Positions 14,776 through 28,708 of a stretch of DNA of 28,708 nt are shown one piece after another. This DNA is from Promethearchaeota archaeon (GTDB taxonomy: Archaea > Asgardarchaeota > Lokiarchaeia > Sigyniarchaeales > SOKP01). Under the pieces are notes generated by a model. The model was not told the DNA's origin. It did not search any database and saw only the letters and a program-made list of their open reading frames with translations. The first letter of the stretch is position 1; every line of letters begins with the position of its first letter. The translations under genes were made by a program, and so were the position numbers. The stretch is taken from assembly GCA_008080735.1 (NCBI GenBank), contig SHMW01000054.1:1-28708 (forward strand). The letters run 5' to 3'.

Positions 14776-15759
14776 ATGACCATCACAGATATAAAAACAC
14801 AAAAAAATGATATCGCATTTGAAGTGAATGATCTTAAGAAACATTTTGAGGATGTAAAAGCCGTGGATGGAATATCTTTCAAAGTGAAGCGGGGAGAATG
14901 TTTCGGATTTCTCGGACCGAATGGTGCGGGAAAAACAACCACCATCAACGTTTTAGCATGTTTTATGACACCAACAGGTGGGAAAGCCAAAGTTGCGGGG
15001 TATGATGTAGTAAAAGAGACAGACTTGGTCAAACAACATATTGGGATGTGCCCTCAAGAGAATATATTTTACGAAGAATTAAGTCCCTATGAAAACCTAA
15101 TGTTTTTTGGCAGAATGTATGAAGTAGATAAGAATTTATTAGTTGAACGAGCTAATCTTCTAATAAAAAAGGTTGGACTCGAAGAAAAACGAAAAACTCG
15201 TTCTGAAAAGCTTTCAGGCGGGATGAAGAGGCGATTAAATTTAATAATTGGTTTGGTGCATGACCCTAATATTCTTTTTCTCGATGAACCAACAGCAGGT
15301 TTAGATCCACAGAGCAGGAGAATGATTTGGGATTATATATTCGAGCTTAAAGAAAGAAATAAATCCATCTTTCTCACCACTCATTATATGGATGAGGCTG
15401 ATATTCTCTCAGATAGGCTTGCGATTATTGACCATGGAAAGATTATCGTACAAGGTACACCCGAACATCTTAAGGAGACAATTGGAAAAGGAGATGTACT
15501 TAATTTTAGGATTGAAGGTCCCAGCGAAAAAATCAGAGACACTACCCAACAAATAAGAAATCTCGACTATGTGTTGGATACTTCATATATAGAGGAAGAA
15601 TTGATATCAAGAATTACCGCGATGGATGGAATAGGGAAAATAGGAAACTTCGTAAATCAATTTAATGAGAAAGGTTTACAGATAGTTGACGTCGAGGTAC
15701 AGAGGAACAGTTTGGAAAATGTATTTTTAGCATTGACTGGGAGGTCCTTACGGGAATAG
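14776..15759 (+). CDS. ABC-2 type exporter ATP-binding subunit (DrrA/NodI-like)
   Basis: Walker A GPNGAGKTT, signature LSGGMKRR, Walker B LFLDEPTAGLDP and H-loop TTHYMDEAD. Confidence 0.95.
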   Translation: MTITDIKTQKNDIAFEVNDLKKHFEDVKAVDGISFKVKRGECFGFLGPNGAGKTTTINVLACFMTPTGGKAKVAGYDVVKETDLVKQHIGMCPQENIFYEELSPYENLMFFGRMYEVDKNLLVERANLLIKKVGLEEKRKTRSEKLSGGMKRRLNLIIGLVHDPNILFLDEPTAGLDPQSRRMIWDYIFELKERNKSIFLTTHYMDEADILSDRLAIIDHGKIIVQGTPEHLKETIGKGDVLNFRIEGPSEKIRDTTQQIRNLDYVLDTSYIEEELISRITAMDGIGKIGNFVNQFNEKGLQIVDVEVQRNSLENVFLALTGRSLRE

Positions 15760-15770
15760 GTGGTAAAAAA

Positions 15771-17315
15771 ATGTCAAGACTCGCTGTATTGACCAAAAAA
15801 AATTTATTGCGATTCGTCAAGAATCCCAAAACCCTCGGATTTATAGTTCTAATTCCTATTCTCTACTATTTAATCCTCGGCTTAGTTTTTGGCGCTGTGG
15901 GAACAGGAAATACGACCACAACGTATAATGTGGGATGGGTTGATTTAGATACTACTAATGCTACGCAGCCGAACTATCAATTAGATAATATTTACGATAT
16001 ATTCAATGATAATATTTCTGCGATAAACTTAAAAAAATACTCCACATTAAATTCCGCTTTTAAAGCGGCTGAGTCCGGTGATATAATTTCTTATGTAGTT
16101 TTTCCAGAAGGTTTTGAAGAGGGGCTTGAAAACCGTTCAAAGACGAACTTAGCGTTCTATAATAACGATTCGACAACATCTACTAACTATTCAATAGCAT
16201 CATTTTATAACAACTTAACCAGTTATTTTTACGAGCAATTTAGTATCACCAATGTCACAGATGCTGGTGATGCTAATGATATTCTCGCGAATTTTAGTCA
16301 GTATTATTATGATGCTATGTTAGTGATTAATAATGGATTTTTAGAAGGATTAGATGACGCGAATCCCATAAATATGACTTATTACTACAGGAATAGCACA
16401 TCACATCAAACAACGCAAGCAAAACTAAACTATGCTTTATCATATCTAAATTCATCAATATTGGCAACATACCAAGAATCATCTAACCTTATAACACTTT
16501 TAAATGCCTCAATTGTAAATGCCGACCCCATAAGCATTTTAGAATATGATATCTATTACAGGGGAGATGTTTCCCCCGCCACCAAGGCTACTTTGACTAA
16601 CACAATTAACCAAATCATTAAGGAATTTATCAATTACAATCCCTCAGATATCGAGTTAAACTTGGATGAGGAACCATTTAAAGGAAAGGTGATAAATCAA
16701 ATCACATTTTCAGCGCCCGGTTATTTGTTATATGGACCAATGTCTATCTTATCGTTTGTATTAGTTGTTCTCACCGGAGAAAAGAAGGATGGCATCTTTA
16801 AACGACTCTCGAGTACTCAAGTGAAAAACTGGGAGATTATTCTCTCTAACATATTCTCCAGCATCCTATTGATCTTTATGCAATTTGCAATTGGAGCGGG
16901 AATCTTAGCTATCTTTGGATGGAATCCCAATTTTGCAAGTATAATAGATCTAATCTTTGGAATTGGGATAACGATGTTCCTATTTTCTTTCTTTCTGCTG
17001 GCATTATCCTTCGCTTTAGCTCCTGTTTTTAAGGATCCTGATACAGCTGGAGGAGGAGTATGGATAATTATCATTCCGCTTGCTATGGTATCGGGAATTT
17101 TCGTCCCCATAGAATTATTTGGGGAGAGTATGCAAGTAATTGCGTCCGTGCTTCCCACAAGATTCGCGGTTGTCGCGCTGCAAAATATCTTGCTTAATGG
17201 AAATTCGTTCCTCACTTCCGAAGTTCTTCTTAATTGGGGATTGCTTATACTTTACTCGGTGATTATATTTGCAATCGGGATTAAACTTTTTAACAAGTTC
17301 GTAAGAGATTCGTAA
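15771..17315 (+). CDS. ABC-2 type exporter permease with a large extracellular domain
   Basis: One N-terminal TM segment, an Asn/Thr-rich loop, then about 5 TM segments with EKKDGIFKRL and SGIFVPIE. Starts 11 bp after the ATPase gene with a GGTGG RBS. Confidence 0.92.
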   Translation: MSRLAVLTKKNLLRFVKNPKTLGFIVLIPILYYLILGLVFGAVGTGNTTTTYNVGWVDLDTTNATQPNYQLDNIYDIFNDNISAINLKKYSTLNSAFKAAESGDIISYVVFPEGFEEGLENRSKTNLAFYNNDSTTSTNYSIASFYNNLTSYFYEQFSITNVTDAGDANDILANFSQYYYDAMLVINNGFLEGLDDANPINMTYYYRNSTSHQTTQAKLNYALSYLNSSILATYQESSNLITLLNASIVNADPISILEYDIYYRGDVSPATKATLTNTINQIIKEFINYNPSDIELNLDEEPFKGKVINQITFSAPGYLLYGPMSILSFVLVVLTGEKKDGIFKRLSSTQVKNWEIILSNIFSSILLIFMQFAIGAGILAIFGWNPNFASIIDLIFGIGITMFLFSFFLLALSFALAPVFKDPDTAGGGVWIIIIPLAMVSGIFVPIELFGESMQVIASVLPTRFAVVALQNILLNGNSFLTSEVLLNWGLLILYSVIIFAIGIKLFNKFVRDS

Positions 17316-17424
17316 ATTCAGAATAATTATTTAATTTTAATTCATTTTTCTTTTTTTATACAAATCATTCTAAATGTAATATCAAATTAGATATGTTATT
17401 CTAATTCCTCTCACTTATTATGAT

Positions 17425-17862
17425 ATGGACGATGAAAGAATTACTTACTTAAAGAAGGACTTCAGTCAAGGGTTTCCCTCTTATTGCGGGTGTAAAGCGG
17501 ATTATGTGGGTAAAGGTGTGTTTCATTCTATTCTTACGATACAAGAAAGACATAAACAACAAGATGGATTTGTCCATGCCGGAGTCATTGCCACGATGGC
17601 AGATCACACAGCAGGATATTCTGCCTATACTCTTGTTCCCAACAATGTTCGAATCTTAACTATCGAATTTAAAATTAATTATTTCAAACCTGCAATCGGT
17701 GAAACAGTACTCTGTAAGTCCCAAGTAATTAATGCTGGAAAAACTATCATCACTTCTGAATCGAATGTCTTTTTATTGTCTGAGGGAGACGAAACTCTCA
17801 TATCTAAAGCACTCGTGACTCTAATGGCGGTTCCCATAGAGAACTTTCAAGATAAAAAATAA
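17425..17862 (+). CDS. PaaI-family (hotdog fold) thioesterase
   Basis: HKQQDGFVHAGVIATMADHTAG and TIEFKINYFKPA motifs. Confidence 0.92.
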   Translation: MDDERITYLKKDFSQGFPSYCGCKADYVGKGVFHSILTIQERHKQQDGFVHAGVIATMADHTAGYSAYTLVPNNVRILTIEFKINYFKPAIGETVLCKSQVINAGKTIITSESNVFLLSEGDETLISKALVTLMAVPIENFQDKK

Positions 17863-18003
17863 ATAAGCCAATATGTCTAACAAATTTATTCTAAGTCTTT
17901 TTCACGATTAAGCCATTAACATTTTTCTATATATTACTCAATAGTCTTAAATAGTCTTTATTGACAAGCTTTTTAGATATCAGAACGCTATTATTGATAA
18001 TAC

Positions 18004-18321
18004 ATGATGACAGAGACCGAAAAGAAGAAAAAATATGTGACGATGGTGCCTTGCTCAGAATGTAAAAGAGTGTTTAAAACTGTAATAGAAAAGCAGGTTG
18101 TGGAAAATGTTGAGCGATTTCCGTTTCCTATCGTCTTGATGCACTACGCATCCAAAGATGATACTCGGGAAGTTCACACAATGATCGCCTATATAGATAA
18201 AGATATGCAATGTCGTCATTGTACCGTTTTAGACGGAAAAAGGGTATATATCACTCCGTATATACTTTACAATCCGAATTTAATTGCTCTAAGCTGCAAT
18301 AAGAGTTTAGGTGGAATTTAA
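18004..18321 (+). CDS. Small putative zinc-binding protein
   Basis: 105 aa with CSEC, FPFPIVLMH, VHTMIAYID and CRHC. Lies directly upstream of a GTPase gene on the same strand. Confidence 0.75.
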   Translation: MMTETEKKKKYVTMVPCSECKRVFKTVIEKQVVENVERFPFPIVLMHYASKDDTREVHTMIAYIDKDMQCRHCTVLDGKRVYITPYILYNPNLIALSCNKSLGGI

Positions 18322-18383
18322 ACAATTGGATCGGAAATTTGGGGTATAATGTTTGATTTGTATAAAAATTTGGAATTATATTT

Positions 18384-18920
18384 ATGATGGTTGAAGAATT
18401 GTCTGATAAAAAGGTTTTGAAGATCGTTATCGCCGGTGACGGCGCTACAGGTAAAACCACTATTTCGAAGAGACTTAATGGCACATTTAGATCGGATGAA
18501 GAATTAAGCATGACCACGGGTTTGGATTTCCATACACTAGAAATTACAGAAAAAGATGGGAAAGCAGTTATCTGGGATCTCGCAGGTCAAGAACAGTTCA
18601 GAAGTTTTCAAGATACGTTTTTCAATGATGCCGATATAGTTATTTTAGTCTATTCAGTGGAATGGTTTTCCAGCTATATGAATATCGATTCTTGGCTCTC
18701 GATGATTGACAGAGAAAATATTTCAAAAATATACCTTATCGCGAATAAGATAGATATAGAAAATCGCGCAATACATTCAGATGAAGCTCAACAATACGCA
18801 AAATCAAAGGGTCTTCACTATTATGAGCTCTCAGCACTTACAGGAGAAGGTTTAGATGAATTTGAACAAGATTTATTGATTACGGCACGAAAAATGACTA
18901 ATGGAGTGAATGATGATTGA
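18384..18920 (+). CDS. Rab-like small GTPase (Ras superfamily)
   Basis: G1 GDGATGKT, G2 MTTG, G3 WDLAGQE, G4 NKID and G5 ELSAL. No prenylation motif. Confidence 0.94.
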   Translation: MMVEELSDKKVLKIVIAGDGATGKTTISKRLNGTFRSDEELSMTTGLDFHTLEITEKDGKAVIWDLAGQEQFRSFQDTFFNDADIVILVYSVEWFSSYMNIDSWLSMIDRENISKIYLIANKIDIENRAIHSDEAQQYAKSKGLHYYELSALTGEGLDEFEQDLLITARKMTNGVNDD

Positions 18921-18962
18921 ATTTTAATAATAAAAGATAATAGAATTTTAATAATAAAAGAT
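18919..18962. repeat. Tandem direct repeat, 2 x 20 bp (period 24)
   Basis: GAATTTTAATAATAAAAGAT at 18919-18938 and 18943-18962, filling the gap between two convergent stop codons. Confidence 0.9.
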
Positions 18963-21900
18963 TTAATATGTTTTTTCAACCCAATTTTCTAATTCTAAAT
19001 ATAGCTTCTTTAAATTTTCGATATTCTCCTCAGAGGCATTCCAATATCCACGTTGCTCTGCTTGAAGCATATTTTTGACGATATCCATCATTGCAAATCG
19101 ATTATTCTCGGTTAATGCGTTGCGAATCTCCTCGTTTTCGATATATTGATGGTATGCCTTATCCCAAATCCAGTTATCTACTTTGTGCGTAGTAGCAGCA
19201 AGCCCTAACACATTTTCAACTCGTTCCGCGACCTTTTGTCCCCCATGATATTTATGTTTCAGTAGTCCTTTAATCCATTCTGGATTTAACGTACGCGTTA
19301 TCGTCCCTTCTTTTATACTCTTTTCCAAGGTATCTACTCGTATATCTTTAGTTGAAGAGTCAGCAATATAGACGTTAGCATTTTCACCCGTCAGTTCTTC
19401 AAAACTACGAGCTAAGCCACCAGTAAATTCATAATAATGGTCTAAATCGGTAATATGATATTCACTTGAATCTCTTATTTGACTCATCAGATTGATTTTT
19501 CCCACTGATTTAGAAAAGGATTCAAAACTTCGGCATACTTTTTGGTTTTTCATATATGCAAAGCACATATTATTTAGATAATCATTCGCTAATTCTTTTT
19601 CTTCTCCCCATTCTCCACCAGAGATAATATCTGTTATGTTTGTATTATACTTTCCTGGTGGGGGTCCATATACACGAGCCTCAGGAAATTCTATATTTTC
19701 AGCTTTTAATTCTTCTATGGATTTTTTAACATAATTCTGATTATTTGGCTCATTTAAATTCGAAACAAGATCAACTGCTTTATTTATCAACTCTAATATG
19801 TACGGAAAGGTATCTCTGAAAATACCTCCGATCGTGGTGATAACGTTTATTCTGGGATGTTCCATCTCATCTAAAGGGATCACCTCGAGTTCGGTTGTCC
19901 ATATGGATTTGTTTTTAACTGCTCGGACACCAAGATAATTGAAAATTTGTCCAATTGTTTCTCCTCCTGTTTTCATCGTCTCAAAGGCCCATAATACAAC
20001 ACTTACAGACTCAGGGAATTCTCCTTTTTCCTTCTTATAATCTTCGAGTAAAGATTCTGCAATCTCGCCCCCTCTTCTATATGCTGTTGAATTCGGTATT
20101 AATCTGGGATCAAAACCATAAGAATTTCGGCCCGTAGGAAAAATATGTGGAGATCTAATCGGATCCCCCCCTAAACCAGGTTTAATATACCCGCCTTCAA
20201 GTGCGTGAATAATATTTTCCGTTTCTCGAGAACTTTCTATGTCAATATCTAAATTAAACACCCATTCAGTTAATTTTTCAATATCATCCTCAGATATATT
20301 CAATTCATCAGCCATATCTTTATCAAGCTGATCAATAATATCATCTAAATCGAAAAGTTTCTCTTTATATTCGTAAAACTTAGTTAGAAATAATCGAATT
20401 CTCTCTGATGTTTGAGCTGAACCTGTGTCCAAATTTTCTAGGATTTCATCTAATTGAGGGATTTCACCAGAATTCAACAAGATCATCTCAATAAGATCGA
20501 TTTTCTCATCTGTGCTATATGATTCTCCAAGGATATGCAACCCCATAGGAATTATAGATGTCTTGTATCGATATAATAAATCCTCTAATTCCGTGATATT
20601 TTCATACTCTAATTCCAGAATTTTTGCGAGCTCATGAATATCTTGTTTGAGATCCAATAATCGTTCAGATTGAACTGAATTTTGAGATTCTTTTATATTA
20701 AGATCGGTTTTTGAATGATATTCTTCTAGTAGTAATTCCAATTGTTCAATTTCCTCATATAAATCCGTATTTTTAAAAGAAGGTCCCGCATGATTGATAA
20801 TTAAGGAATTAGCGCGTCTTTTGGCAATTGCGGATTCGCTAGTGTTTGTCACGTGATAATAATAAATATTGGGAAGTTTTCCAATAAGATTGATATTATA
20901 ATCATCCCAACCACCCGCACATTCTCTTCCGGGAAGAAATTCTTCTGTACCGTGAGTACCGATATGAATAATTGCATCAACATCCAATTCTCGTTCGATA
21001 TATCTATAAAAAGCTAAATATTGGTGGTGTGGGGGAAGATTACGGTCATGATATTCATTTGGATCACCAGAAACTGTGCTTCGTGCGGGTTGTAAACAGA
21101 GATAAATATTCCCATATTGAATTATAGGTAATTTGATACTGGAGTTTTCGATCATAATTTTACCAATTGGCTCTCCCCAAAATTCAATGACTTCTTCTTG
21201 TAATTCTTCCGGAAGTTGATTGAAAAATTGGATATATTCTTTTTTATTAAAAAGGATTCCGTTAAATTGATCAACATTAGTAAATTTCGGACAATTAGCT
21301 GCTCCTCCCTCGATAAAAATATCTCCTAAGGTCTTCTCCTCTGGGAAACCGTCGGCTTGGTATCCTTCACGTTTTAATGAGGTCAAAAGATTCCGAATGG
21401 ATTCAGTCACATCTAAGTATGCAGCATTTCCTATTTTATCTTCTCCCGGAGGATAGTTATACACAATTATTGCTACCCTCTTCTCTGAATTTAATTTTTT
21501 CCGGAGACCAAGCCATTTTTTAACACGTTCGGTGGTGAGTTGAATATTTTGTTCTAATGGGACAACTTCCATTACATCAGAGTCAATAACTTCCGAGTAA
21601 CCTAAACTTCGCATACATCCTACCGTCATCATCTCAAACCGACCATCTAATTCAGGCATTACCACCGCAATGATTTGATTTATGGGTATAATACCCTCTT
21701 GAGAAGTTCTATAATCCTCTATAGGATTATCAAATTGTATTACAGGATTGAATTGAGGTACATTTAATTTCTGATATAAATCTAAGGTTTTTGAAGAATC
21801 TCCCCCAAAGGGTCCTCCATTGAGTTGGAAATATTGTAAATTTATTATAGCACTTACTAAACTTTTCCCATTCTTGAAAAAGAATTCTTGGTGTGCTTCT

Positions 21901-22775
21901 ACATTAGTAAGCACATCGGAAAAAACGGGAAGCACGTTATAATCGTTTAAATATTCCATAAATCGTTCTATAATTGGAAGAGATTGTTCAAAATATAGTC
22001 CACCATAAAAAAATAGCCCAATTGTTTGCTTACTTGGATCATAATTGATATCTACTAAGTAATCATCCAAATCTTCATAGTATTTATTTTTCTGAATATC
22101 ATATATTCCATAGGACGGAATTTTTTGTGGTTTGGGTACGTCTAAATCCTCAAATCCTAAGTAATTTTTAAGAAGGAATAAGATCATATTTTTATGATTT
22201 TCCGCAATTCCCCCGAGTCCATATACCCAATAATCCATCATTAAACCCCAGTATCTGGCGTGTTTCAACGCTTTAAATGGAAATATCTTTCCCATGAATT
22301 TAATTAGCTTTGTCATTCGTTGTCCAAACCTAACAGCATCAGTGAGATCGGGAATCTCATCCGTGCCATAGTCATCTGGGCCTGAAGAAGGAATTTTCTT
22401 GGCCATAAAGGAACCCATCTTCGTAAGCTTTCTTATTTCGCTGTTTCCACCGACAAGGGCAATGATTGCTTTATCTTTAAATAGATTTGGATTCTTTTCT
22501 TCCATTTCGTTATACGTATTTACTAAGATCTCCGCTGTGGGACAATTTCCTCTAATATCCAGAAGCATTATTTCTGAGTCATAAATATCCTCGATAAACT
22601 CCTCTTTAGGAATCTTACCGGAATCTACATCATTCAAAAAATATAATTTAAAATTAAAAACTTGTCCCAATTCTTTATAGATTTTTTGTATCCCTTCTGT
22701 CAACCATTTCACAAAAACAGAAGCAGAAACCAAGGTGATTTTTGGGATATCATTTTCTGAGTTTTTATCAACCAT
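18963..22775 (-). CDS. Class I chelatase large subunit (CobN / magnesium chelatase BchH-ChlH family)
   Basis: 1270 aa with VVMPELDG, YNYPPG, PPHHQYLAFY, HIGTHGTEEFLPG, SESAIAKRR, GGDPIRSP...PTGRN, ITDLDHYYEFTGG and TRTLNPEWIKG. Confidence 0.93.
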   Translation of the reverse strand: MVDKNSENDIPKITLVSASVFVKWLTEGIQKIYKELGQVFNFKLYFLNDVDSGKIPKEEFIEDIYDSEIMLLDIRGNCPTAEILVNTYNEMEEKNPNLFKDKAIIALVGGNSEIRKLTKMGSFMAKKIPSSGPDDYGTDEIPDLTDAVRFGQRMTKLIKFMGKIFPFKALKHARYWGLMMDYWVYGLGGIAENHKNMILFLLKNYLGFEDLDVPKPQKIPSYGIYDIQKNKYYEDLDDYLVDINYDPSKQTIGLFFYGGLYFEQSLPIIERFMEYLNDYNVLPVFSDVLTNVEAHQEFFFKNGKSLVSAIINLQYFQLNGGPFGGDSSKTLDLYQKLNVPQFNPVIQFDNPIEDYRTSQEGIIPINQIIAVVMPELDGRFEMMTVGCMRSLGYSEVIDSDVMEVVPLEQNIQLTTERVKKWLGLRKKLNSEKRVAIIVYNYPPGEDKIGNAAYLDVTESIRNLLTSLKREGYQADGFPEEKTLGDIFIEGGAANCPKFTNVDQFNGILFNKKEYIQFFNQLPEELQEEVIEFWGEPIGKIMIENSSIKLPIIQYGNIYLCLQPARSTVSGDPNEYHDRNLPPHHQYLAFYRYIERELDVDAIIHIGTHGTEEFLPGRECAGGWDDYNINLIGKLPNIYYYHVTNTSESAIAKRRANSLIINHAGPSFKNTDLYEEIEQLELLLEEYHSKTDLNIKESQNSVQSERLLDLKQDIHELAKILELEYENITELEDLLYRYKTSIIPMGLHILGESYSTDEKIDLIEMILLNSGEIPQLDEILENLDTGSAQTSERIRLFLTKFYEYKEKLFDLDDIIDQLDKDMADELNISEDDIEKLTEWVFNLDIDIESSRETENIIHALEGGYIKPGLGGDPIRSPHIFPTGRNSYGFDPRLIPNSTAYRRGGEIAESLLEDYKKEKGEFPESVSVVLWAFETMKTGGETIGQIFNYLGVRAVKNKSIWTTELEVIPLDEMEHPRINVITTIGGIFRDTFPYILELINKAVDLVSNLNEPNNQNYVKKSIEELKAENIEFPEARVYGPPPGKYNTNITDIISGGEWGEEKELANDYLNNMCFAYMKNQKVCRSFESFSKSVGKINLMSQIRDSSEYHITDLDHYYEFTGGLARSFEELTGENANVYIADSSTKDIRVDTLEKSIKEGTITRTLNPEWIKGLLKHKYHGGQKVAERVENVLGLAATTHKVDNWIWDKAYHQYIENEEIRNALTENNRFAMMDIVKNMLQAEQRGYWNASEENIENLKKLYLELENWVEKTY

Positions 22776-22787
22776 TTTTCTTTCTCT

Positions 22788-24758
22788 TTATGAGTTTTCA
22801 ATAAGGCCTTGCTTTTTTAGAATATTATTAAGTTCTTGCTCGTTCAGATTATCTATATGATAATAAACCGCATTGGAGGCTTCAGAAAGTTTCTTGTTAA
22901 TTCCCAATGGAACATCTGAGTTTTCAGTATCAATAATAATCATTTCTAACTCATTTTTGGCAATACAAGTGCCCGTGTTTATAAGATCTTCTATTGCATC
23001 CTTGTAATAGACATTACCCCGAGCATCCGATAATAAAACTATAAGCGGGATATAACCCGTATTTTTTCTTTTTTCTTCCATTGCTAATTCAATTGCTTTT
23101 GACAAGCCCTCCACCAAAGGTGTCGTTCCCCCCGTAGGAATCTCTTTTAATAACTTGTATGCTAAATCTGTACTTCTTGTTGGTGGCAATATAACCTCTG
23201 CCTTATCTTTTCTGAATACTACTAACGCTACTTTATCGCGATGAATATAATTTGTTTGTAAGATCGAAAAAATCGCACCTTTCACGGCTTCCATTCGGTT
23301 TTTAACGCCCATAGAGCCAGACGCGTCGACACAAAAGATTATTAGATAACTTGACTTGCCCATTCTCCGTTTTAAATGTATATGATCTTCTAATATAGTT
23401 AAAGCATCACCATTTTTTAAGGCATCTCGATTTTCTTTTTCTAATGCGGCTTTATTTAATGTTTCATTAAGCGCAATATCATGGGATGTCGTAAAATTAA
23501 AATTTCGAGGTTTATCCCCTCCAACATACTTTCCTCTAGAACTGCTTGTCGGATGGAGTATTCGTTTCCCTGACGTATTCATTTTTTCTCTAATTCGCTT
23601 GTCTTCAATTATCTTATCGGCATTTGTGTCTTTTCCAACTTTGAATACCTCTTCTCTCATATTTAAGATTTCTTCTGAAAGCATATCTTGATTAATTTCT
23701 TGTTCCTCCGCTGGTTCTTGATCGTAATTCTCTTCAATCATCTCATCAATTTTCTCCTCATCTAAAATTTGGTCTTCGAAGGGTAATCGTCGCATGCGAT
23801 GGCTGAGCGCTAGTCTCGCAGCAATTTTGATATCTTCTTCATTAACGTCCCTTCGTTCATTAAAAGCCGCAATAGTTTTTGAAGTCCGTGCGATCGTTAT
23901 ATCTGCTCGATGTCCATCTGTTTGGAATTCGATGCATAATGCAGCGATTTTTTTAAGTTGCTCTTCTGTAAGCGAAACCTCATTAAGTAACTCTTGGGCA
24001 TTTGTGATGCGTTCTCGTAATTTATCCTGCTCCACCTCGTAATCTTTACAAAATTGTTTTGGATTAGTCTGAAATTGTTCCACTCGTTTCACGATTTCTA
24101 CTCTTTCTTCAATATCTTGAATTCGTTCGACATTCACGCTCAATCCAAAACGGTCCAATAACTGCGGACGTAGGTTTCCCTCTTCTGGATTCATCGTTCC
24201 GACAAGAATGAAATTCGCAGGATGATGGAAACTGATTCCTTCTCTTTCAATAATATTAACACCCATCGCAGCACTGTCTAATAACACATCCGCGACATTA
24301 TCTGCCAATAAATTAACCTCGTCAATATAGAGTATGTTTCGATTCGCTTCCGCTAAGATCCCGGGCTCTAGTGCTTTAATGCCCTCTACAAGAGCTTTTT
24401 TTATATCGATAGTACCGACCACACGATCTTCTGTGGCATTAATGGGAAGAGTAATAACGCTCATCTTTTTTTCTGTGATATCCTCCTTTCCAATATGATG
24501 GTCAACATAATGTTCTTGGCATTTAACACACATTTCTTGCTCATCGTGAGGATTGCAATTAAATCGGCATTCTTGGATTATTTCAATCTTTGGTAATATA
24601 TCCGCTAAAGCTCTAACGGCGGTTGATTTCGCAGTTCCTTTCATCCCTTGGATTAACACACCGCCTATTTTCGGGTTGATGGCATTAAGAATAAGTGCCA
24701 ATTTCATCATCTCCTGCCCGACAATGGCTGTAAACGGATATATCTCATGACATGTCAT
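22788..24758 (-). CDS. chlD: Chelatase AAA+ subunit, ChlI/ChlD fusion with C-terminal vWA domain
   Basis: YPFTAIVGQ, Walker [17 protein letters not shown], Walker [29 protein letters not shown], an acidic linker, and MIDAS DASGSMG...GGTTPL...LSD. Ends 12 bp upstream of the large-subunit gene. Confidence 0.92.
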
Positions 24759-24842
24759 TTTATTCTATCATCAATATTCTATTTCTATTTGAATTTGCTC
24801 TGAATATTCGATTGAATATTTTTATTTGAATATTATTTCTTT

Positions 24843-24870
24843 GTAATATTACATTTAATTTCAATACTAC
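24843..24870. promoter_or_regulatory. Putative NikR-type operator upstream of the chelatase operon
   Basis: GTAATA-ttacatttaatttcaa(16)-TACTAC, a 6-16-6 dyad 85 bp upstream of the chlD start. Confidence 0.5.
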
Positions 24871-24993
24871 TAGTGTTGGAGAAAATATGATCCCAAAGCA
24901 TATAACATTAAAGGATTAGAAACTCGATAAAATTGATCATATTTATCATTCCGTATCTAAGATATTCCACTAAATCAAAAAAGCGTCTTTTAT

Positions 24994-25059
24994 AAAGATA
25001 AGTGTGAAATCCATCTATAAGAGTAACAACAGTTTTTTCACACTTTCTTTCGTTTTTTT
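24994..25059 (+). other. Inverted repeat / hairpin followed by a T-tract (terminator-like or operator)
   Basis: AAGTGTGAAA (25000-25009) / TTTCACACTT (25036-25045), extendable by AAAGA/TCTTT with a 1-nt bulge, followed by CG and a T-run. Confidence 0.4.
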
Positions 25060-25320
25060 ATGAAATATAAGAACTTATTGATCTTTGAAAAAGCTGGTTC
25101 TATTTGAATGAAAGTGACTATTTTGTACAGAATTATATATAAAAATGAAAAAATCCTACAGATTCAATTCTAAAAATAGAAGTTTTAAATATAATGAAGA
25201 TCTTAGATATAATTCATAGTAATTAGGTGTGTATTTTGTACAATCGTGGTAAATAACACTTAGAAAACGTTTTATAAAAATACATTTAATTATTCAAAAA
25301 TTTATAAGAAAATTGATTCT

Positions 25321-27351
25321 ATGAGAAAAAACAAATATTATCTACTTTTATCGATAGCTATTGGGTTTTTACTTATCCCATCGGGTTTTATAGCATTTAG
25401 CTATTCTCCAAATGGTGAGATGGAAAACCCAAATTCTACTATAGATTTAAAAACAGCTTACAATTCGGAATATCCCATTGTTCTCTGTCCCGGATGGCTT
25501 GGTCAAGGCATTAGTATGATTAAAGTGTGGAATATTTTAGATGAGGCGGGATTTAATATGATAAATTTTAATGGCGCGTATAGTCCGACTGCAGATAAAA
25601 CTGTAAGTACAAAAGCAATTACTTATAGTCCGACTTATAATGGATGGAGCTTCAATGATAGAGATACAGATGGTATTCCAGAGTCCTCCGGGTATACTCA
25701 AATTAAGGGAGATAAATATAAGGACACCTACAATAATAATGAACTTGTAGTAAAAGGAGACGGAATTTGGTGGATTGCTGAACAGATACGTGATTATGTG
25801 TTTGACAAAGTTACCTTTACGGCACCTGGTTCTGCAGTGCTCTCTCCTTCCGAAACTGGAGATGGTACTTGGCATACCCCAAAAATTAACTTAATTACTC
25901 ATAGTATGGGGGGATTATTAAGCCGAACTCTATTAAAGAGAAATCTACTTTCTGGAAACAAATTTGAGCATATCATAAATATTCAAGCACCTCACTGGGG
26001 TGTACCTGTAGCAGATTGGGGCGCTGGAATGCCTGGAATTATTCAAGATATTGAACTCGGTATTATTAACAGTTTCGGACCATGGGCAGCAAGCGCGTGG
26101 GATATGCAAACCGATTCTCAATTTATGAAATGGTTAAGTGATTATGATTTTATTCATGAAGTGACCGATGTCGCTATTCAACCAGACAGCTGGTCTACCA
26201 TCGCGGGACATCCATGGCCGGATATATTCTTTTCCAATTTTCCAGGAAATGATATGAATAAGCCGGAAGATTTCCAAAATACGGGAACAACTGGTCCAGC
26301 ATTAACCACTGATTTAACCGGATTTGATGCGCTAGTCCCACAGGATGGGTCTTGGTTAATAGGATCCAATACCTATATTTGTGAGGATAACCATGGAACG
26401 GCACTGATGGGAGAATCTACTCTAAATATTCTCTTAGATATTCTCGGAAGCGGATATCATTTTGAAGGCGATAACATTCCATTAGTCGGAAACGCTTTTG
26501 TAAATATTATGGGCTTTTCGACCACAGAAAATATGGATGGTTGGCCTGATTATGGGGGAGAACCTTATTATAAAATATGGATCGATGCCGATGGAGATGC
26601 CTATACGAATGACTATATCTCCATTAGTGATAATCTTGATTCTGGCATTGGAGACCTTGATGCTGGGGAAGCATACCGAGAAACAGGTGATATATGTCAG
26701 AGCGATATGTTTAGCTTGGATGATTATGAGACTCCGTTCATAAATATTAAAATTGAAGTATGGGACGATGATTCATTAAACGCTGACGATCTCTGGGCAA
26801 CCTTTGAAGTAAAAGGAATCACTTTATCTTCAGATATCGACCAAGATGATTTTGAGTTTGTCGCGGAAGATGCTGATGGGAATAAGATCTGGTTCGAAGT
26901 GAACGGATTTACCAATGATGTAGCAAAAAGTAATGTCGCTCATCTACAAGTTCATCTGGATCATATAAAATACAATGATAATTATGAATCTGGCGGTGCT
27001 GAGATGTTCATTAAAACTTGGGCGGGAGATGGAAACCATCCAAAGTATTACGATAGAGATGATTTAGGTACGGTTGATGGAGTTGATGATGGAGAAACGG
27101 TGTATTGGGATGTAGAAATGTTTAAGGGCTATATTAAGAAAGATGCTCCACTGAAGATTCGTTGCGAGGCATGGGAAGATGACAGTTGGTCTAGTGATGA
27201 TGATTATCCTGCCTTCAATTGGTGGTCAGAAGATTGGGATGGATATATTGATGGAAGTCAGTGGGGTTGGTTCCCTTGGGACGCGAACGATTGTGAATAT
27301 CAAATTTGGTTCACCCTTCAAAATCCCGAATATGCCTTCAGTTTAAGCTGA
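25321..27351 (+). CDS. Secreted alpha/beta-hydrolase (lipase/esterase-like) with two acidic C2-like C-terminal domains
   Basis: Signal peptide MRKNKYYLLLSIAIGFLLIP, oxyanion region PIVLCPGWLG, nucleophile elbow LITHSMGG (Ser195), IQAPHWG, FDALVP (Asp) and DNHG (His). The C-terminus carries KIEVWDDDSLNADD and RCEAWEDDSWSSDD. Confidence 0.85.
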   Translation: MRKNKYYLLLSIAIGFLLIPSGFIAFSYSPNGEMENPNSTIDLKTAYNSEYPIVLCPGWLGQGISMIKVWNILDEAGFNMINFNGAYSPTADKTVSTKAITYSPTYNGWSFNDRDTDGIPESSGYTQIKGDKYKDTYNNNELVVKGDGIWWIAEQIRDYVFDKVTFTAPGSAVLSPSETGDGTWHTPKINLITHSMGGLLSRTLLKRNLLSGNKFEHIINIQAPHWGVPVADWGAGMPGIIQDIELGIINSFGPWAASAWDMQTDSQFMKWLSDYDFIHEVTDVAIQPDSWSTIAGHPWPDIFFSNFPGNDMNKPEDFQNTGTTGPALTTDLTGFDALVPQDGSWLIGSNTYICEDNHGTALMGESTLNILLDILGSGYHFEGDNIPLVGNAFVNIMGFSTTENMDGWPDYGGEPYYKIWIDADGDAYTNDYISISDNLDSGIGDLDAGEAYRETGDICQSDMFSLDDYETPFINIKIEVWDDDSLNADDLWATFEVKGITLSSDIDQDDFEFVAEDADGNKIWFEVNGFTNDVAKSNVAHLQVHLDHIKYNDNYESGGAEMFIKTWAGDGNHPKYYDRDDLGTVDGVDDGETVYWDVEMFKGYIKKDAPLKIRCEAWEDDSWSSDDDYPAFNWWSEDWDGYIDGSQWGWFPWDANDCEYQIWFTLQNPEYAFSLS

Positions 27352-27531
27352 GCTTAAAAATTTTTTATAATTCAATCTTTTTTTTATTTTATTAAAATAC
27401 TAGTTTTAACAGATGTTTTGTTTGCTAATTTAGTTATATTAATGTTTTAATTCCATTATTCTGAATAAAAATAATGATAAAAAAAAAGAAATAAAAGAGC
27501 AAGCATTGATGAAATATGGCAGTATTTTTAA

Positions 27532-27828
27532 TTACTTCGCTCTTTTATTCTTGAAATAGGTTATGAGGTAAAATACTCCTCCAATTATTATTGCTGCTAA
27601 TATCAAACCAATTAATCCAGCTACGTATTCATTTGTTATAAAGGAAAGAAAAGGAGTCCAAAGGGATTCGGGTTCTCCTACTCCACTATCCTCTAAAACG
27701 CGCTCTAGGCCGTCTGGATCCTCTGATAATATCCCTACAGTAAATCCGACCGAAAGCATGATCGCCAGCACCCCAAAAATGATAATAATCGAGATAATGG
27801 GCCATTTGTAGCGTTGCCAGTTCACCAT
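27532..27828 (-). CDS. nikN: PDGLE-domain membrane protein (NikN-like component of a metal ECF transporter)
   Basis: Two TM segments flanking SEDPDGLERV. Starts 3 bp downstream of the nikM stop. Confidence 0.85.
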   Translation of the reverse strand: MVNWQRYKWPIISIIIIFGVLAIMLSVGFTVGILSEDPDGLERVLEDSGVGEPESLWTPFLSFITNEYVAGLIGLILAAIIIGGVFYLITYFKNKRAK

Positions 27829-27831
27829 TTC

Positions 27832-28503
27832 TTATTGCACCCCCATTATGTTCTGCGTTATGATTAATGTGGGTTTAACTCTTAAAATATAATAGATAAT
27901 TAGTGCTGATATTATAGCCTCCCCTATCCCTATCAATAAATGCCAATAGACCATCGCGGGGATTGCTACGTTGTATGGAACCACATTTGAGATACCCAAT
28001 TCTATTCCGCATACGAAAGCTGCGAGTACGATGCTTACATAAGATCCAATTGCGGTGGAAATGGTAATTTTTACGGTTTTATCCATCGAGGTTTTATTAA
28101 ATACCTTAATAATACCTACAACGATATAAAATCCAATTATCCCACCGATGATTCCCATATTGAACGTATTAGCTCCTAAAGCTGTTATGCCTCCATCACC
28201 GAACAGACTTTGTACTAATAACACCAAAAATAGAATGATTACCGATGCCCAAGGTCCTAAGATTACCGCTACTAATGTACCTCCGACCAAGTGCCCTGAG
28301 GTGCCGCCAGGAACGGGATAATTTACGAATTGAAAGGCAAAAATGACCGCCGCTAAAACACCAATATACGGAACAAGCTTTTCCGAATCCTCTCGCTCGA
28401 ACATCTTACCCATTCGAAAATATCCCAGTACCATAATGAGAACTGTTACAATCCATAGGACAACAATACTCACCAAATCTAAAAGACCATCTGGTATATG
28501 CAA
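27832..28503 (-). CDS. nikM: ECF metal transporter S component, CbiM/NikM family (nickel-type)
   Basis: N-terminus MHIPDGLL (TTG start, AGGTGA RBS at 28511-28516), FAFQFVNYPVPGGTSGHLVGG, QSLFGDGGITALGANTFNM and HLLIGIGEAIIS. Confidence 0.9.
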   Translation of the reverse strand: MHIPDGLLDLVSIVVLWIVTVLIMVLGYFRMGKMFEREDSEKLVPYIGVLAAVIFAFQFVNYPVPGGTSGHLVGGTLVAVILGPWASVIILFLVLLVQSLFGDGGITALGANTFNMGIIGGIIGFYIVVGIIKVFNKTSMDKTVKITISTAIGSYVSIVLAAFVCGIELGISNVVPYNVAIPAMVYWHLLIGIGEAIISALIIYYILRVKPTLIITQNIMGVQ

Positions 28504-28572
28504 ATATTTATCACCTATAAGTTGATTTCAAATTGTGATTTTTTTTAATTCGAATTTAAATGTTACGGTCAT

Positions 28573-28600
28573 CTAATATAATATTACTAATAAGTATTAC
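28573..28600. promoter_or_regulatory. Putative NikR-type operator upstream of nikMN
   Basis: CTAATA-N16-TATTAC on the + strand (GTAATA-N16-TATTAG on the coding strand), 70 bp upstream of the nikM start. Confidence 0.5.
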
Positions 28601-28708
28601 TGTCTTCAAATATAGTATGAAGCCATAATAAAAACCCAAGAAAGATCCTTAAGTATAATATACACTTATTATCATTAAAAAAAATAAATATAATTTCCCA
28701 AAATACTG

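Follow-up and report, generated by a model that had tools for sequence, protein, structure and literature searches.

The DNA considered here is a whole contig of 28.7 kb (SHMW01000054.1, hereafter the window) from a Promethearchaeota genome of 4.1 Mb that is 93% complete, and its subject is a two-gene operon predicted to encode a complete and intact ATP-driven class I chelatase, lying near the genes of a putative nickel importer. The large (tetrapyrrole-binding) subunit, a protein of 1270 amino acids (aa), is encoded by a chlH-like gene at 18963-22775 on the minus strand; 12 nt upstream of it, at 22788-24758 on the same strand, lies chlID, which encodes a fused ChlI-ChlD motor of 656 aa. The importer genes nikM (27832-28503) and nikN (27532-27828) are likewise on the minus strand and the two pairs are 2.77 kb apart, which is the operon and the same-strand layout described in an earlier reading of the sequence (the original prediction). 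That reading proposed that the chelatase may handle nickel, and may be repressed together with nickel uptake, in an archaeal, non-phototrophic host. The nearest relatives of the window's genes are labelled Lokiarchaeota or Promethearchaeota, and the host is therefore an Asgard archaeon of the Loki type, in keeping with what had been claimed.

The large subunit is CobN/BchH-like, as proposed, with a PF02514 match of 1002 bits that spans 1087 of the 1090 model positions and identifies it as the large subunit of a class I chelatase. Databases name its close relatives 'cobaltochelatase CobN'. Its scores against the narrower models are all under their cut-offs: 811.7 bits against 829 for TIGR02025 (BchH), 619 bits against 822 for TIGR02257 (CobN), and far below for every PRK05989 model. 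Among proteins of known structure the best match is ChlH (503 bits), ahead of two CobN entries (388 and 365 bits) and HmuS (336 bits; PDB 9d26). Phylogenies were anchored with genes on annotated plasmids whose pathway is evident from their setting, namely BchH from photosynthesis clusters and CobN beside cobW, cobG and cbi genes, supplemented by the Haloferax pHV3 CobN that is accompanied by a ChlID-like gene, by HmuS from a complete hmuYRSTUV operon, by Asgard homologues and by representatives from a full-library search. FastTree (168 sequences) and IQ-TREE (45 sequences) agree on four groups, CobN, HmuS, BchH/ChlH and a further clade containing the query, which we call clade D and which is sister to BchH/ChlH in both trees. 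Support in FastTree is 99 for clade D and 99 for its union with BchH; in IQ-TREE it is 96 and 98, respectively, with 100 each for CobN, HmuS and BchH. A grouping with true CobN, for which the original prediction had advised checking, was thus not seen in either tree. Three assignments were rejected on these grounds: CobN, a separate clade whose model is also missed; HmuS, likewise separate; and BchH/ChlH proper, since the query lies outside this sister clade and narrowly under its model's cut-off.

Clade D contains most Asgard copies, a Methanopyrus kandleri protein annotated as 'CobN/Mg-chelatase family', Desulfothermus, and Chloroflexota, Chitinivibrionales, Thermoplasmata and Pacearchaeota sequences. 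Lokiarchaeum ossiferum, too, encodes a clade D homologue. The clade is widespread and functionally unassigned, and it occurs in anaerobes that make no chlorophyll. Three divergent Asgard genes (L043, L044 and L045, from genomes G014, G002 and G026, respectively), 32-33% identical, fall in the CobN clade and not in clade D, and genes of the Peripla_BP_2, FecCD and ABC-ATPase types lie beside them.

The active site can be compared residue by residue with that of ChlH, for which H621, E625, Y651, Y653, E660 and H1174 (Synechocystis numbering) have been published as catalytic (PMC13297055). Mapped through a HMMER alignment to 4zhj, where the chain numbering is offset by 20, the equivalents in the query are H608, E612, Y638, Y640, E647 and H1113. 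Virtually every member of the four clades keeps the first five positions. The H1174 position, by contrast, separates the clades, being His in 17 of 19 BchH and 70 of 72 clade D sequences, Asp or Cys in 51 of 58 CobN sequences and Asp in 17 of 19 HmuS sequences. The presence of this His together with the conserved catalytic set makes the active site of the large subunit ChlH-like. A His in CobN at the ChlH-E660 position was considered as the metal discriminator and discarded; the residue is Glu in all four clades, and it is the H1174 position that discriminates instead. Where the HmuS haem ligands Met-79 and His-254 (the head-neck site) are concerned, the N-terminal domains align poorly.

The motor is equally well preserved. 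ChlID carries AAA_lid_2, Mg_chelatase and VWA domains, in an architecture in which a linker joins an AAA+ module to a VWA/MIDAS domain, and its nearest model is TIGR02442, 'putative cobaltochelatase' (713 bits, below the cut-off of 779). Walker A (G38/K44), Walker B (D146/E147) and the MIDAS motif (D478-x-S480-x-S482) are kept, along with four cysteines, in virtually all of the 36 Asgard orthologues that were aligned; at the Walker A serine position, 33 of them have S and 2 have T. These cysteines (C64, C68, C77 and C80) form an insert, C-x3-C-x8-C-x2-C, just past Walker A (window 24519-24569), and suggest a bound metal or an Fe-S or Zn site in the motor. The two subunits are encoded side by side in 38 of 41 Asgard loci, and a stand-alone ChlI was not found in the genome.

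The closest characterised counterpart is Mg-chelatase (Synechocystis ChlH, PDB 4zhj/6ysg), which provides the best structural match and the sister clade, shares every catalytic residue including the His at the H1174 position, and is driven by a motor of the same AAA+ and VWA/MIDAS type. Unlike the locus described here, however, it has I and D as separate genes rather than one fused gene, and its reference loci have bchBNLM adjoining, whereas the query has no bch or chl neighbours and a non-phototrophic host. Neither the window nor any of 41 related loci contains a bch or chl gene, although bchM was not searched for across the whole genome. The claim that cobalamin and chlorophyll genes are absent from the rest of the window was borne out by a domain scan of its open reading frames (ORFs), among which the ChlID and ChlH-like pair is the only tetrapyrrole-related entry.

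The genome as a whole extends this picture. It encodes one CobN-family protein, and no TP_methylase, CbiX, CobD/CbiB or Peripla_BP_2 gene was found in it, although at 93% completeness the absence of any gene is unproven. A corrin, siroheme or F430 ring pathway was consequently not detected when this was checked, and because no ring-synthesis gene was found we infer that the enzyme must act on an imported macrocycle. At the same time the genome holds at least 16 B12-binding domains, a NikR regulator with ribbon-helix-helix and NikR_C domains, and the large subunit of a [NiFe]-hydrogenase. The host thus appears to use corrinoids and nickel yet to be unable to build any tetrapyrrole ring, a biosynthetic role for the chelatase is unlikely, and the nickel importer already has ordinary clients. 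In the absence of any TP_methylase-family gene, diphthine synthase is missing too, despite a Diphthami_syn_2 gene on a longer contig (L011:1-430). Neither CbiB nor a BtuF-type binding protein was found in the genome despite its B12-binding domains.

The importer itself is of the nickel type by its signature. NikM is an energy-coupling factor (ECF) S-component of the CbiM family (PF01891, 185 bits) with a TTG start and the N-terminus MHIPDG, and its orthologues begin MH[IL]PDG in 22 relatives. The nikN-like gene encodes a small membrane partner of 98 aa with a PDGLE motif; its Pfam match, at 22.3 bits, is weak and falls below the cut-off of 27, and its counterpart in a locus of the same genus (L004) also adjoins nikM, at 62% identity. 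CbiQ and ABC_tran genes (nikQ and nikO) lie divergent from nikM just past the end of the window, as seen on an identical metagenome contig of 167 kb, and with these next to nikM the importer is a full NikMN-QO system. The NikM/NikN affiliation that had been read from MHIPDG and from a PDGLE partner in place of CbiN therefore stands. Nevertheless, sequence gives no certain answer as to nickel or cobalt specificity within the CbiM/NikM proteins (PMC2667541).

It is at this point that cobalt has to be considered. The enzyme might be a cobaltochelatase of the CobN plus ChlID type, as in Haloferax and mycobacteria, serving corrinoid salvage by inserting cobalt into imported metal-free corrinoids, with the adjoining CbiM-family transporter supplying cobalt instead of, or besides, nickel. 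Such a reading would account for the database label, for the affinity of the motor to TIGR02442, for a genome rich in B12-binding domains but devoid of a detectable ring pathway, and for the ambiguity of transporter specificity; moreover, the known enzymes of this kind likewise consist of a large subunit and a ChlID-like motor encoded by two genes. In Haloferax volcanii, however, the pair on pHV3 sits inside a cbi cluster, whereas no cbi or cob genes were found at the query locus or in its genome. The large subunit lies outside the CobN clade and carries His where CobN has Asp or Cys. Since CbiB, CbiX and the methylases were not found, there would be no route to or from hydrogenobyrinic acid diamide, and the transporter bears the nickel signature rather than CbiN. 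Among 41 Asgard loci, B12-related neighbours are confined to the three divergent genes of the CobN clade. Taken together, we regard a cobaltochelatase as quite unlikely.

Neighbourhoods of clade D genes in other organisms hint at salvage. In Desulfothermus the gene stands between a TonB-dependent receptor and a Peripla_BP_2-FecCD-ABC importer, the locus continuing with a second receptor and a second CobN-family gene. A Chloroflexota genome has ChlID, a binding protein, FecCD, an ATPase and the clade D gene in one block. Of three cultivated or named members whose loci were inspected, two are thus set in TonB-receptor and/or Peripla_BP_2-FecCD-ABC import cassettes; the neighbourhood of the third, in Methanopyrus, holds almost no annotated families and offers no functional hint. 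These bacterial loci are arranged for import followed by processing, which fits a salvage role and is reminiscent of a proposal by Rodionov et al. (2003), cited in PMC6460266 as 'BtuS, metalloporphyrin salvage'.

Cassettes of this kind are also used for haem, and a haem de-chelatase like HmuS/BtuS, one that frees iron or protoporphyrin from scavenged haem and has the nickel importer as a mere neighbour, is accordingly a further possibility. HmuS and BtuS (PDB 9d26; PMC12583661; PMC6460266) are CobN-family proteins in hosts that do not make the ring, ring synthesis being missing here as it is in haem-auxotrophic Bacteroidota; salvage under the control of metal starvation is plausible for both, and the 336 bits to HmuS place the query in the same superfamily. 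'BtuS' paralogues of Methanosarcina are reported to be raised under altered supply of iron and sulfur (PMC10846266). HmuS itself, on the other hand, is ATP-independent, NADH-dependent and membrane-anchored, and it works within the hmuYRSTUV operon (PMC12583661), whereas the query is of a soluble type, belongs to a separate clade and has an obligatory ChlID motor that is present in 38 of 41 loci, with no hmuY, hmuR, hmuT, hmuU or hmuV partner among the window genes. The promoter box described below ties the operon to nikM and not to recognisable iron genes. A haem de-chelatase is in our view very unlikely, and both it and the cobalt/corrinoid reading are less likely than salvage within a nickel regulon.

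The evidence for nickel has, however, shifted from where the original prediction had placed it. Conserved synteny between the chelatase and nikMN fails as a general proposition. Of 301 Asgard genomes, 41 yielded the chelatase and 179 yielded nikM, and the two occur together in only 2 of the 41, the window genome and one congener, where nikM-nikN-chlID-chlH are contiguous on one strand (L004). In other Asgard genomes the chelatase and nikM lie on separate contigs or 50-83 kb apart, and in 10 of the 20 chelatase-bearing genomes of the family, including all four of one genus, no nikM was found. Physical linkage is therefore genus-specific. Even in the window the cluster is split, between chlID and nikN, by an opposite-strand ORF of 676 aa (25321-27351, plus strand) with no assigned function; its best match, to a PGAP1-like hydrolase, is sub-threshold, it is annotated as two genes (201 and 440 aa) on an identical public contig, and it is missing from L004. 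The neighbours of the operon also change from genus to genus, among them an HD protein with a CDF efflux protein, an ABC-2 exporter, a TrmB regulator and Fer4/V4R proteins. All of this would be expected if there were no tie to nickel, that is, if the adjacency to nikMN were a chance rearrangement in one genus, substrate and metal being others, and any AT-rich promoter box common to the two operons were a promoter element peculiar to the lineage or bound by a regulator with a broader role in metal or stress responses.

A first attempt to connect the two promoters, the 'matching dyad' reported before each gene pair, carries little of the weight. The unit GTAATATTA does occur on both sides, at 24843-24852 before chlID and at 28579-28587 before nikM, and to that extent the claim is weakly confirmed. 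By itself the unit means little: it has 4 matches in the window where shuffling the whole window predicts 0.86, and the AT-rich spacers raise the local expectation. No word of 11 nt or more is common to the chlID and nikM upstream regions, which share only two AT-rich 10-mers, and generic inverted repeats in the two spacers have nothing in common beyond GTAATATTA. The chlID copy lies within a perfect 12-bp palindrome, TGTAATATTACA (24842-24853), that resembles single units of the family operator described next but with the wrong spacing, and it is missing from the nikN-chlID spacer of the same-genus locus, the only one examined. The nikM copy, on the other hand, falls within a conserved operator region.

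This region contains two adjacent operator-like sites of 28 bp in the divergent promoter of nikM and nikQ (28560-28624, minus strand), found by pattern search and weight matrix. The first is TCATACT-N14-GTAATAC (28593-28620, minus strand); the second, GTAATAT-N14-GTAACAT (28560-28587, minus strand), ends just before a TATA-like element, TTTAAAT. The region is conserved in relatives, and a survey of 21 nikM upstreams (19 usable from 20 family genomes, plus the window and L004), 20 chlID upstreams and 151 intergenic control windows from the same loci brought out its general form. Upstream of nikM, TAATACT and TCATACT show a 15-20-fold enrichment, and the composite box [TAG]MATAY[TC]-N12-16-[TAG]MATAY[TC], typically TMATACT-N14-TMATAYT with a AAATTATAA-like spacer and 28 bp long, is found in 17 of 21 nikM upstreams (81%) and 14 of 20 chlID upstreams (70%) but in only 12 of 151 controls (8%). 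The boxes before chlID come from about 8 of 14 lineages, and they are kept also where nikM is unlinked or was not found; in the genus-4 genomes, for example, the chlID box reads TAATACT-N14-TCATACT. With a weight matrix built without the window's own sites, the window nikM promoter is the top match of the 4.1-Mb genome, at 23.9 bits. In each of five other genomes the exact N14 box has only 8-13 sites, of which 1-2 per genome are on nikM or chlID.

The architecture of the box resembles that of NikR operators upstream of nikMNQO importers, for which the signals GTATGAT-[N13/14]-ATCATAC and GTGTTAC-[N13/14]-GTAACAC have been published (PMC545781; Rodionov et al., 2004). Half-sites of 7 nt, a spacer of 13-14 nt, a total of 27-28 bp and a position upstream of nikM are all shared, and the half-sites TCATAC and GTAA[CT]A[CT] recall the published ATCATAC and GTAACAC. 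The box differs in being richer in AT, and it also precedes a Cys-rich peptide and occurs at a ZnuA-like gene. NikR is encoded in 119 of 121 family genomes and, failing to separate chelatase-bearing genomes from chelatase-free ones, was discarded as a marker of the former.

Several points weigh against a nickel-responsive regulon. The window's own chlID promoter lacks a good box, the best matrix score in 24759-25320 being 7.6 bits, with units spaced by N9-N11. The half-sites of the box are direct and not inverted as in the published NikR signals, each unit being itself near-palindromic (e.g., AGTAATACT). Counts are inflated by related sequences. Across the genome the raw pattern shows no enrichment, with 64 occurrences where local shuffles give 93, and in five genomes it is rarer than a reversed control. 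None of the other high matches in the genome is a nickel gene (they are the Cys-rich peptide, the end of a ZnuABC-like operon, an FAD-oxidase/CCG locus and a winged-helix regulator). What the regulator senses could accordingly be a different metal or more than one, although these matches neither confirm nor exclude nickel specificity. To these must be added the genus-specific linkage, the lack of any identified tetrapyrrole importer in the genome, and the fact that the one de-chelatase proven so far, HmuS, works without an ATPase (PMC12583661) whereas the motor is strictly conserved here. Against the absence of a nickel tie stand the contrast between the controls and the two sets of promoters, the NikR-like geometry and half-sites, the rank of nikM as the top match in the genome, and the persistence of the box before chlID at unlinked loci and where no nikM was found. 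On balance, we hold a locus without any tie to nickel to be somewhat unlikely.

The reading that we prefer, with a probability of roughly 45%, is that the operon encodes a salvage-type metal chelatase or de-chelatase that belongs to a nickel-responsive regulon. Its tie to nickel would lie in the NikR-operator-like box common to chlID and nikM across the family and in the clustering with nikMN-QO within the genus, and it is independent both of the dyad first reported and of conserved synteny. The proposal that the chelatase is co-regulated with nickel uptake is in this way sustained by evidence other than the dyad on which it was first founded, which did not show it. Since the box has the layout of a NikR operator around a TATA-like spacer, repression by Ni-NikR is probably the likeliest logic. 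When nickel is plentiful, Ni-NikR would repress both the operon and the importer; when nickel is scarce, the chelatase would be expressed alongside nickel uptake. The motor could then drive distortion of a scavenged metallo-tetrapyrrole, perhaps F430, an F430 derivative or a Ni-porphyrin, and the metal could be removed or exchanged from the distorted macrocycle, much as HmuS takes iron from haem. Under such logic metal salvage would, by analogy, be the most economical role. What was observed are the genes, the clade, the conserved catalytic and motor residues, the lack of a detectable ring pathway and the common promoter box; from these we infer, in this scheme, that NikR binds the box and that the metal is nickel, and likewise what the substrate is and which way the reaction runs.

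A bolder generalisation is that clade D chelatases are ATP-driven nickel de-chelatases or exchangers under NikR, with which tetrapyrrole-auxotrophic anaerobes, Asgard archaea included, mine nickel from the F430 or Ni-porphyrins of methanogenic or methanotrophic neighbours; this we consider unlikely. If true, nickel would be acquired in sediments by a new route, and class I chelatases would gain a new reaction. To our knowledge, neither ATP-driven de-chelation of nickel from tetrapyrroles nor this route of acquisition has ever been demonstrated. CobN and ChlH homologues in archaea and anaerobes that make neither chlorophyll nor aerobic vitamin B12 have long been an annotation puzzle. Thauer's group ventured in 2011 that such homologues are nickel chelatases (PMC3087415), and the 2025 study of HmuS called their use in Archaea unclear (PMC12583661). 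To this puzzle the present locus adds a clean case of a genome that yielded no ring pathway, a place in a defined clade whose active site is of the ChlH type, and a family-wide box in common with an importer, and it makes the puzzle experimentally addressable through binding of NikR, nickel-dependent expression, and ATP-dependent removal or insertion of metal.

Some of the box-bearing loci elsewhere in the genome are of interest in themselves. On one contig (C75:5335-5620, L075) two tandem boxes of the nikM type lie upstream of a gene for a 39-aa peptide with three CKCGGGC-like repeats, which looks like a metallothionein; an HTH_34 winged-helix regulator is encoded immediately upstream of it, and a cytochrome-b561-like membrane protein on its downstream side. 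On another (C3:57299-60888, L074) a ZnuA-ZnuC-ZnuB-like ABC importer has TAATACT-N14-GTAATACT at the start of znuA and another high-scoring box past the end of the operon, and its permease is fused to a SAM-methyltransferase domain.

Similar variety is seen around the chelatase operon. An ABC-2 type exporter (an ATPase and a 514-aa permease) at 14776-17315 of the window, on the opposite strand and about 1.6 kb past the 3' end of the chlH-like gene (17315 to 18963), is syntenic with the operon in several family genomes (L005, L006, L018, L019 and L025), in some of them directly upstream and on the same strand. In genus g2 (L020-L023), a CDF efflux protein with a winged-helix N-terminus and an HD-domain protein are encoded directly upstream of chlID on the same strand, and a TrmB-family regulator lies divergent and downstream. 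In the Asgard family f10 (L038-L041), two Fer4 genes stand between the ChlH-like gene and ChlID and are followed by two V4R-domain proteins, which hints at a redox requirement or at small-molecule handling. The window also encodes two Ras-family GTPases and ribosomal protein S26e.

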